Positions 17,725 through 17,878 of a stretch of DNA of 18,870 nt are shown here, one piece after another. A program made the position numbers and the translations under genes. The stretch lies in the IMG/VR virus record IMGVR_UViG_2740892232_000009; one strand, written 5' to 3'. The notes under the pieces were generated by a model. That model had not been told where the DNA came from and made no database searches. It saw only the letters and a program-made list of their open reading frames with translations. This stretch comes from a virus (lineage: Duplodnaviria; Heunggongvirae; Uroviricota; Caudoviricetes). The first letter of the stretch is position 1. Every line of letters begins with the position of its first letter.

Positions 17725-17800
17725 GCCGACTTAGCTCAGTAGGTAGAGCAACTGACTTGTAATCAGTAGGTCACCAGTTCGATTCCGGTAGTCGGCACCA
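17725..17800 (+). tRNA. tRNA-Thr, anticodon UGU (76 nt, CCA encoded)
   Basis: Cloverleaf folded by hand: acceptor GCCGACT/AGTCGGC, D-stem GCTC/GAGC, anticodon stem ACTGA/TCAGT, loop CTTGTAA, T-loop TTCGATT. One A-C mismatch in the T-stem (52:62). Confidence 0.88.
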
Positions 17801-17803
17801 TAT

Positions 17804-17878
17804 GCGGGTATCGTATAATGGCTATTACCTCAGCCTTCCAAGCTGATGATGCGGGTTCGATTCCCGCTACCCGCTCCA
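17804..17878 (+). tRNA. tRNA-Gly, anticodon UCC (75 nt, CCA encoded)
   Basis: Acceptor GCGGGTA/TACCCGC, anticodon stem TCAGC/GCTGA, loop CTTCCAA, T-arm GCGGG-TTCGATT-CCCGC. Near-identical to recalled E. coli glyT apart from one compensated acceptor base pair. Confidence 0.9.

Follow-up and report, generated by a model that had tools for sequence, protein, structure and literature searches.

The two tRNA genes that lie between the Q-like antiterminator gene and the lysis genes of this Escherichia coli prophage are elongator tRNA genes that constitute the minimal form of a modular tRNA cassette widespread in lambdoid phages, and sequence comparison indicates that they derive from the thrU...glyT genes of the host. 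We consider it fairly probable that the pair serves AT-rich phage and accessory genes by supplying the sole decoders of ACA and GGA.

The window, i.e., the complete 18,870-base stretch of DNA analyzed here, is a Rac-like E. coli lambdoid prophage. A segment of 601 nt that includes the tRNA genes (17500–18100) is 100% identical in E. coli strain 1428 and eight other RefSeq genomes. In strain 1428, this region is located within a full-length prophage which adjoins ttcA and carries intR, xisR, ralR, recET, kilR, and sieB, followed by the lysis genes, trkG, and the head and tail genes. The window also harbors two type I toxin-antitoxin loci detected by Rfam: a RalA antitoxin RNA (2167–2345, plus strand, 220 bits), whose partner ralR is encoded on the other strand, and a sok RNA (15140–15314, plus strand, 116 bits) that overlaps a Hok/Gef ORF at 15252–15464.

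Two intact tRNA genes between Q and the holin gene

A preliminary description of this DNA had placed a tRNA-Thr(UGU) and a tRNA-Gly(UCC), separated by 3 nt and both with an encoded CCA end, between Q and the lysis genes. Our analysis bears this out. ARAGORN calls exactly two tRNA genes in the whole window, direct reading of the sequence locates the CCA triplets at 17798–17800 (tRNA-Thr) and 17876–17878 (tRNA-Gly), and the Q-like gene and the holin gene on either side are encoded on the same strand as the tRNAs (Table 1). With 73.8 bits for tRNA-Thr and 65.6 bits for tRNA-Gly, both genes score above the gathering score of 29 of the Rfam tRNA model RF00005, and neither scores as a pseudogene. 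Both are intact and, judging from their sequences, very probably functional. A pseudogene reading is ruled out by the Rfam scores together with the identity to host genes. We can likewise exclude that the pair is the remnant of an integration site, as both genes are complete and occupy a central position in the prophage, a long way from intR and ttcA.

Table 1. Features of the region from the Q-like gene to the holin gene (positions refer to the window).
Feature	Position	Strand	Evidence and remarks
Q-like late antiterminator gene, DUF1133 family	16817–17359	+	phrog_753 "anti-termination protein Q-like" (E 3e-79); Pfam DUF1133 (E 1e-106); weak Phage_antitermQ match
Candidate Q-cognate late promoter, TTGATT-17-TTCAAT	17356–17384	+	Sequence reading; overlaps the Q stop codon
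Predicted intrinsic terminator just 3′ of Q, tR′-like	17439–17472	+	13-pair stem, then T run
AT-rich block, 183 nt	17473–17655	+	GC content (26% GC)
Candidate sigma-70 promoter for the tRNAs	TTGCGA 17621–17626, 16 nt, TATCAT 17643–17648	+	Consensus scan
Predicted leader hairpin	17656–17721	+	Minimum-free-energy fold; stable; ends 3 nt before the 5′ end of tRNA-Thr
tRNA-Thr(UGU)	17725–17800	+	ARAGORN call (tgt); identical to host thrU; CCA encoded
3-nt spacer TAT between tRNA-Thr and tRNA-Gly	17801–17803	+	Sequence reading
tRNA-Gly(UCC)	17804–17878	+	ARAGORN call (tcc); host glyT with U6:A67 allele; CCA encoded
Non-coding trailer	17879–18240	+	Only short ORFs; unannotated in identical RefSeq copy
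Strong predicted intrinsic terminator	18241–18270	+	8-pair stem, T8; ∼360 nt past tRNA-Gly
S21 (P21-type) holin gene, essD-like, first lysis gene	18655–18870	+	Pfam Phage_holin_2_1; PHROG holin families; essD in strain 1428

Phages 666R9, 673R7, and 613R10 share the same Q gene and the next 113 nt including the terminator, followed by unrelated cargo, and homology to 666R9-type phages stops at query base 656, which corresponds to window position 17472. Since Q and the adjacent 113 nt are common to phages with differing cargo, a mosaic joint can be placed at ∼17472. The terminator at this joint is kept in 683R6, Escherichia ruysiae, Citrobacter braakii, and 666R9. The Q-like gene and the 113 nt travel as one (window 17356–17472; L141 3040–3155), which suggests that this segment, with its promoter match and terminator, is the Q-cognate late promoter and terminator unit of an uncharacterized DUF1133-type Q family. 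A Q-cognate late promoter presumably lies within 17356–17472; the candidate TTGATT-17-TTCAAT at the upstream end of this interval was not called by the consensus promoter scan.

Downstream of the joint, both hexamers of the candidate tRNA promoter are in place in the much-diverged C. braakii copy (TTGAAA-16-TATTAT). The leader hairpin contains a 13-nt tandem duplication (GCTCGGTGATATC twice, 17681–17706) of which phage 683R6 and E. ruysiae have only one unit; for many E. coli genomes among the 171 with the same context, matches shorter by 12 nt suggest a single copy, too. Beyond the tRNAs, the terminator at 18241–18270 is kept in 683R6 and E. ruysiae, and ∼20 nt past it there is a terminator-like hairpin on the minus strand (18292–18315), so that the two stand back to back; downstream of this hairpin, the minus strand has no evident gene. 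Between Q and the holin gene, ORFs do not exceed 53 aa and are without family matches, and a permissive Rfam search for other RNAs returned only sub-threshold chance matches. A 67-aa ORF overlapping the 3′ end of Q has no Pfam or PHROG match.

The tRNA block thus arranged looks like a promoter-cargo-terminator unit that was inserted past the Q-linked terminator. Possible "moron" features are the block of 26% GC, the promoter-like site conserved in C. braakii, and the downstream terminator, with the promoter and terminator calls being consensus matches whose site counts are near shuffle expectation.

Host origin and distribution of the Thr-Gly module

The E. coli K-12 operon thrU-tyrU-glyT-thrT-tufB served as reference for the comparison with host genes. 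The prophage tRNA-Thr matches K-12 thrU at 76 of 76 positions, and tRNA-Gly is identical to glyT at 73 of 75, the only changes being C6 to T and G67 to A. Together, these two changes convert the acceptor pair C6:G67 of glyT into U6:A67, and the discriminator and pairs 1–3 are the same as in glyT. The earlier view of tRNA-Gly as glyT save for one compensated acceptor pair is therefore confirmed. For tRNA-Thr, the A-C mismatch that had been noted in the T stem is present (it is flagged by cmscan), whereas the description of this tRNA as more diverged was wrong; given the identity to thrU, the mismatch belongs to the host tRNA itself.

The pair shares with the host operon its sequence source and the Thr-then-Gly order, but lacks tyrU, thrT, and all host spacers and has a different promoter; TAT takes the place of the 209 nt between thrU and glyT, which include tyrU, in the prophage. 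No flank homology to the K-12 operon was found outside the mature tRNA sequences; the two genes may have been joined by loss of tyrU or may have been captured separately.

With a 61-nt probe spanning the Thr-TAT-Gly junction, which the host operon is unable to match at the threshold used, the junction was detected in 870 of 5,426 complete E. coli genomes (16%, or about one in six), with 1,055 copies overall and at most five per genome. The wider 601-nt context is common to 171 E. coli genomes. In a search with an exact pattern and one genome per species, the junction was also found in C. braakii, Enterobacter hormaechei, Shigella flexneri (three copies), and E. ruysiae, and at least 120 IMG/VR contigs carry it. 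Among published phages, the Thr-Gly module is present in vB_EcoS-683R6, phi467 (Stx2f), PhiR47_1, JLK-2012, and the LT-II prophage SerU-LTIIb, the last of which has two module copies (Thr/Arg-Gly). In each of them the module precedes the holin gene and is encoded on the late strand, with a Q gene upstream of the module wherever the fetched stretch reaches that far; the partial SerU-LTIIb record stops short of it. In relatives, toxin genes are harbored by this interval between Q and the holin gene as well. The stx2f genes of phi467 (2266–3501 of the fetched stretch) are located just upstream of the Thr-Gly pair, and LT-IIb of SerU-LTIIb (5219–5493 of the fetched stretch) lies downstream of the lysis genes.

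The window form, Thr-Gly alone, accounts for 52 of the 120 IMG/VR contigs listed. CAU-Lys(UUU)-Thr-Gly is found in 38 of them, CAU-Arg(UCU)-Thr-Gly in 15, and Asn-Thr-Gly and Leu(UAA)-Thr-Gly in one each, the rest being odd or truncated cassette forms. Asn-Thr-Gly also occurs in JLK-2012, and the CAU gene of the cassettes is named tRNA-Ile by PGAP. The Thr-Gly pair had been regarded as a cargo different from the Ile/Arg tRNAs that lambdoid phages carry at this position. This distinction does not hold: 16% of complete E. coli genomes and many lambdoid phages contain the pair, and it often stands beside Ile(CAU) and Arg(UCU) genes in one cassette.

Within the four-tRNA cassettes, Thr-Gly constitutes the constant 3′ half. 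Among the matches listed, 119 of 121 copies have the TAT spacer, and the commonest two-gene form (25 contigs) combines a U16/U20 Thr gene with a U6:A67 Gly gene, as does the window. The Gly allele of phi467 and PhiR47_1 is C6:G67, in contrast to U6:A67 in the window. The "Lys" and "Arg" genes at the second position of the cassettes have one common 77-nt body, and in the Lys form a C replaces the near-universal U just before the anticodon. We also observed thrU bodies with a switched anticodon, namely UGU to UCU (called Arg) in SerU-LTIIb (1122–1197 of the fetched stretch) and UGU to UUU (called Lys) in E. coli 2014EL-1346-6 (2954–3029 of the fetched stretch) and in two of the 120 IMG/VR contigs listed. 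These changes of the middle anticodon base look like natural anticodon switches among readers of ANA codons.

Of the Gly gene, no more than the first five bases were constrained by the search pattern, so this gene is a fair sample for conservation. Its mean pairwise identity is 96.4% in 114 IMG/VR copies among the matches listed, compared to 40% and 51% for the module flanks (75 nt on each side) in the same sample. Within these 114 copies, pair 6:67 is C:G in 63, U:A in 45, U:G in four, and broken in two, and pair 49:65 shows a second compensated change, with G:C in 111 and A:U in three. Degenerate module copies are rare. Such a pattern fits a tRNA that is kept functional rather than decaying cargo.

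Codon supply and alternative roles

Codon usage was determined for a host set of 40 annotated K-12 genes (15,000 codons) and for those annotated in the prophage of strain 1428; the late genes were thus taken from this prophage, which is identical across the tRNA region, and not from the window's own late region (Table 2).

Table 2. Usage of ACA and GGA (codons per thousand).
Codon	Host	Late genes	Early genes	NACHT gene	Lambda late	Lambda early
ACA	5.5	12.9	21.3	26.6	8.1	15.6
GGA	6.1	14.0	17.0	10.7	9.8	17.6

As the preliminary description had anticipated, both codons are enriched over the host in late, early, and NACHT genes. Usage of ACA and GGA is 2.3-fold above the host in late genes, and in early genes ACA is enriched 3.9-fold and GGA 2.8-fold; within-family Fisher tests of the ACA/GGA enrichment gave p values from 1e-6 to 1e-18. 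In the window's own non-NACHT genes we counted 20.9 ACA and 16.8 GGA per thousand. By absolute excess in early genes, ACA ranks second and GGA third among all codons. By ratio, AGA, AGG, and ATA are enriched above ACA/GGA, and the prophage is without a tRNA for them.

The expectation that the NTPase gene would be rich in A-ending codons also proved correct for ACA, with almost five times the host usage. This gene (12381–14639, plus strand, 32% GC) encodes a 752-aa protein with Pfam domains NACHT and NCH1 and occupies a variable slot, which holds DUF977, hypothetical, and KilA-N genes in the otherwise similar prophage of strain 1428 and an S8 peptidase gene in phage 683R6. PADLOC gave no confident system match for the NACHT NTPase; its gene probably serves anti-phage defence from within a prophage hotspot.

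Although lambda lacks tRNA genes, ACA/GGA usage in its early genes is close to that of the prophage, and its late genes are only ∼1.5-fold below the prophage late genes. For this reason, the proposed service of the tRNAs to these codons is supported as far as the enrichment of ACA and GGA goes, whereas the link to tRNA carriage is only correlative.

In E. coli, tRNA-Thr(UGU) and tRNA-Gly(UCC) are each encoded by a single gene, and each is the sole decoder of ACA or GGA, respectively. According to the codon-supply explanation that we favor, a precursor would be transcribed from the candidate promoter in the AT-rich block (∼17621–17648) and, after induction, also by Q-antiterminated read-through from a late promoter beside Q. 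Following established tRNA maturation, RNase P would cleave at both 5′ ends, and the 3-nt spacer and the trailer would be trimmed back to the encoded CCA. Since tRNA-Thr equals thrU and tRNA-Gly retains all GlyRS identity elements (G1:C72, C2:G71, G3:C70, U73, C35, and C36), ThrRS and GlyRS should charge the two tRNAs. Of these, tRNA-Thr would read ACA, as well as ACG and ACU by wobble, and tRNA-Gly would read GGA/GGG. The prophage copy would raise the tRNA supply, with a large increase upon replication of the phage genome, and could in this way aid translation of AT-rich phage and accessory genes, in which ACA and GGA are 2- to 5-fold above the host. Here we infer the promoters, the expression timing, and any fitness effect. 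The larger cassettes with additional Ile-type CAU and Arg(UCU) genes cover AUA, AGA, ACA, and GGA, all of which are A-ending, rare in the host, and enriched in the prophage. The commonest four-tRNA cassette, however, includes a tRNA-Lys(UUU), whose codon AAA is not rare, so that supply for rare codons is unable to explain the whole cassette family.

The pair could instead be an autonomous "moron" that is expressed in the lysogen and mediates lysogenic conversion, with the host as the main beneficiary because translation of horizontally acquired AT-rich genes, such as the NACHT defence gene of the prophage and trkG, would be improved rather than that of the phage late genes. The AT-rich block with its conserved promoter-like site upstream of the pair and the strong terminator downstream of it, both past the Q terminator, would agree with this, as would the mosaic joint at 17472 and the codon usage of the two genes: ACA makes up 61% of the Thr codons in the NACHT gene, and trkG has 20.7 ACA and 26.9 GGA per thousand. 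We nevertheless regard this role as unlikely, as the promoter and terminator are consensus matches with counts close to shuffle expectation, the module flanks of other phages differ, and in four-tRNA cassettes the module directly follows other tRNAs. Only the location within the late operon is constant, an indication of late expression. It could also be argued that the module goes back to a single capture from the host operon and spread with the mosaic late region as a neutral hitchhiker without any fitness effect. Many lambdoid phages of similar codon usage, including lambda, do without tRNAs, and the module resides at a known hotspot of mosaicism and cargo, where stx, LT-II, and further cargo genes are found as well. 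Conservation far above that of the flanks, compensation of the stem changes, persistence in at least four genera and many unrelated flank contexts, and the rarity of degenerate copies, on the other hand, make neutral spread very unlikely.

A role in counter-defence, in which spare tRNA-Thr(UGU) and tRNA-Gly offset depletion by PARIS AriB or by Gly/Thr-specific toxSAS/GNAT toxins, appears distinctly unlikely for the pair as well. U16 and the UAAUC/A41 context, with the cut before A41, contribute to recognition by AriB, tRNA-Lys with the exchange U16C was impaired in its cleavage by AriB, and T5 has resistant tRNAs that rescue infection (PMC12409363). FaRel2 selects tRNA-Gly and tRNA-Thr together by the shared acceptor pairs 1, 2, 4, and 5 (PMC11559606). 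The overlap of the cassette specificities Lys, Thr, Asn, and Gly with such nuclease and toxin targets is notable: cassettes join Thr-Gly with Lys(UUU) in 38 of the 120 IMG/VR contigs listed and with Asn in JLK-2012, and C16 and/or C20 is found in the Thr D loop of ∼34 of 121 alleles among the IMG/VR matches listed. However, the tRNA-Thr of the window is identical to the host target and keeps U16 and the U36-A-A-U-C/A41 site; it should therefore be cleaved like the host tRNA, which leaves only a dosage effect. Neither tRNA of the window differs from the host at nuclease or toxin recognition sites, with U39-C40-A41 kept in tRNA-Thr and the 6:67 change of tRNA-Gly located outside the FaRel2 determinant pairs (PMC11559606). 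Moreover, FaRel2 is of Firmicute origin, and the genome-encoded tRNA-Thr of T5Mos was insufficient for infection rescue (PMC12409363). Since the window allele keeps every published nuclease recognition feature, counter-defence is disfavored for this allele. Escape alleles at the AriB cleavage site were rejected after three scans of IMG/VR, in which no Thr allele changed at position 39, 40, or 41 was found.

We attach little likelihood to the more general version of this idea, i.e., that the constant Thr(UGU)-Gly(UCC) core and its variable Lys(UUU), Asn(GUU), Arg(UCU), and Ile-type CAU partners form a counter-defence kit by which temperate lambdoid phages would restore just those tRNAs that are lost to PARIS-type nucleases (Lys, Thr, and Asn) and acceptor-stem-reading toxins (Gly and Thr). 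If this were true, an arms race would have given rise to the Thr alleles with C16/C20 and to the thrU bodies with a switched anticodon (UGU to UUU/UCU), and the host-identical allele of the window would act by dosage only.

Relation to known phage-borne tRNA genes

For this window, the tRNA pair is ordinary and of low significance. The descriptive gain lies in the recognition of Thr-Gly as the constant core of a modular cassette that is present in about one sixth of complete E. coli genomes, and in the clean compensatory evolution of the cassette tRNA-Gly. In addition, the anticodon-switched and D-loop-variant Thr bodies of its relatives are testable against tRNA-targeting defence systems. The Thr-Gly pair is already known and is correctly annotated in the identical RefSeq copies, and post-Q tRNA genes that read phage-enriched codons are textbook knowledge for lambdoid phages and have been described for decades.

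The closest records, i.e., strain 1428, 683R6, phi467, PhiR47_1, JLK-2012, and SerU-LTIIb, have identical or near-identical modules that agree with the window in both genes, in the spacer, and in the site between Q and holin, but differ in their flanks and in the neighboring cargo (stx2f, LT-II, or extra tRNAs). Stx phages such as 933W carry the ileZ-argN-argO tRNA trio in the late region after Q, and this trio has been read as a supply for the rare A-ending codons AUA and AGA. The window pair has other specificities and resembles the trio as post-Q late tRNA cargo. Since many prophages join CAU (Ile-type) and UCU (Arg) genes with Thr-Gly in one cassette, the trio and the pair belong to one modular family. 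Phage T4 encodes tRNA-Gly(UCC), tRNA-Thr(UGU), tRNA-Arg(UCU), and tRNA-Ile(CAU) along with others, all of which read A-ending codons. Specificities and codon-supply rationale are the same as for the cassettes, whereas T4 is virulent, its tRNAs are diverged, and they reside in another genomic setting.

Among lambdoid phages, SfI has a tRNA-Asn and a tRNA-Thr(UGU) downstream of Q, and ACA usage is 17.3% compared to 7.1% in the host (PMC3636060). The same paper states this post-Q arrangement also for Sf6, ST64T, PS3, and P21. These phages share with the window the site after Q and before the lysis genes, the strand, the tRNA-Thr(UGU) specificity, and the argument from ACA bias; the partner of tRNA-Thr in the window is a tRNA-Gly(UCC) joined by a 3-nt spacer, in contrast to the SfI-type phages, which carry tRNA-Asn(GUU) and/or tRNA-Thr(UGU) (PMC3636060).
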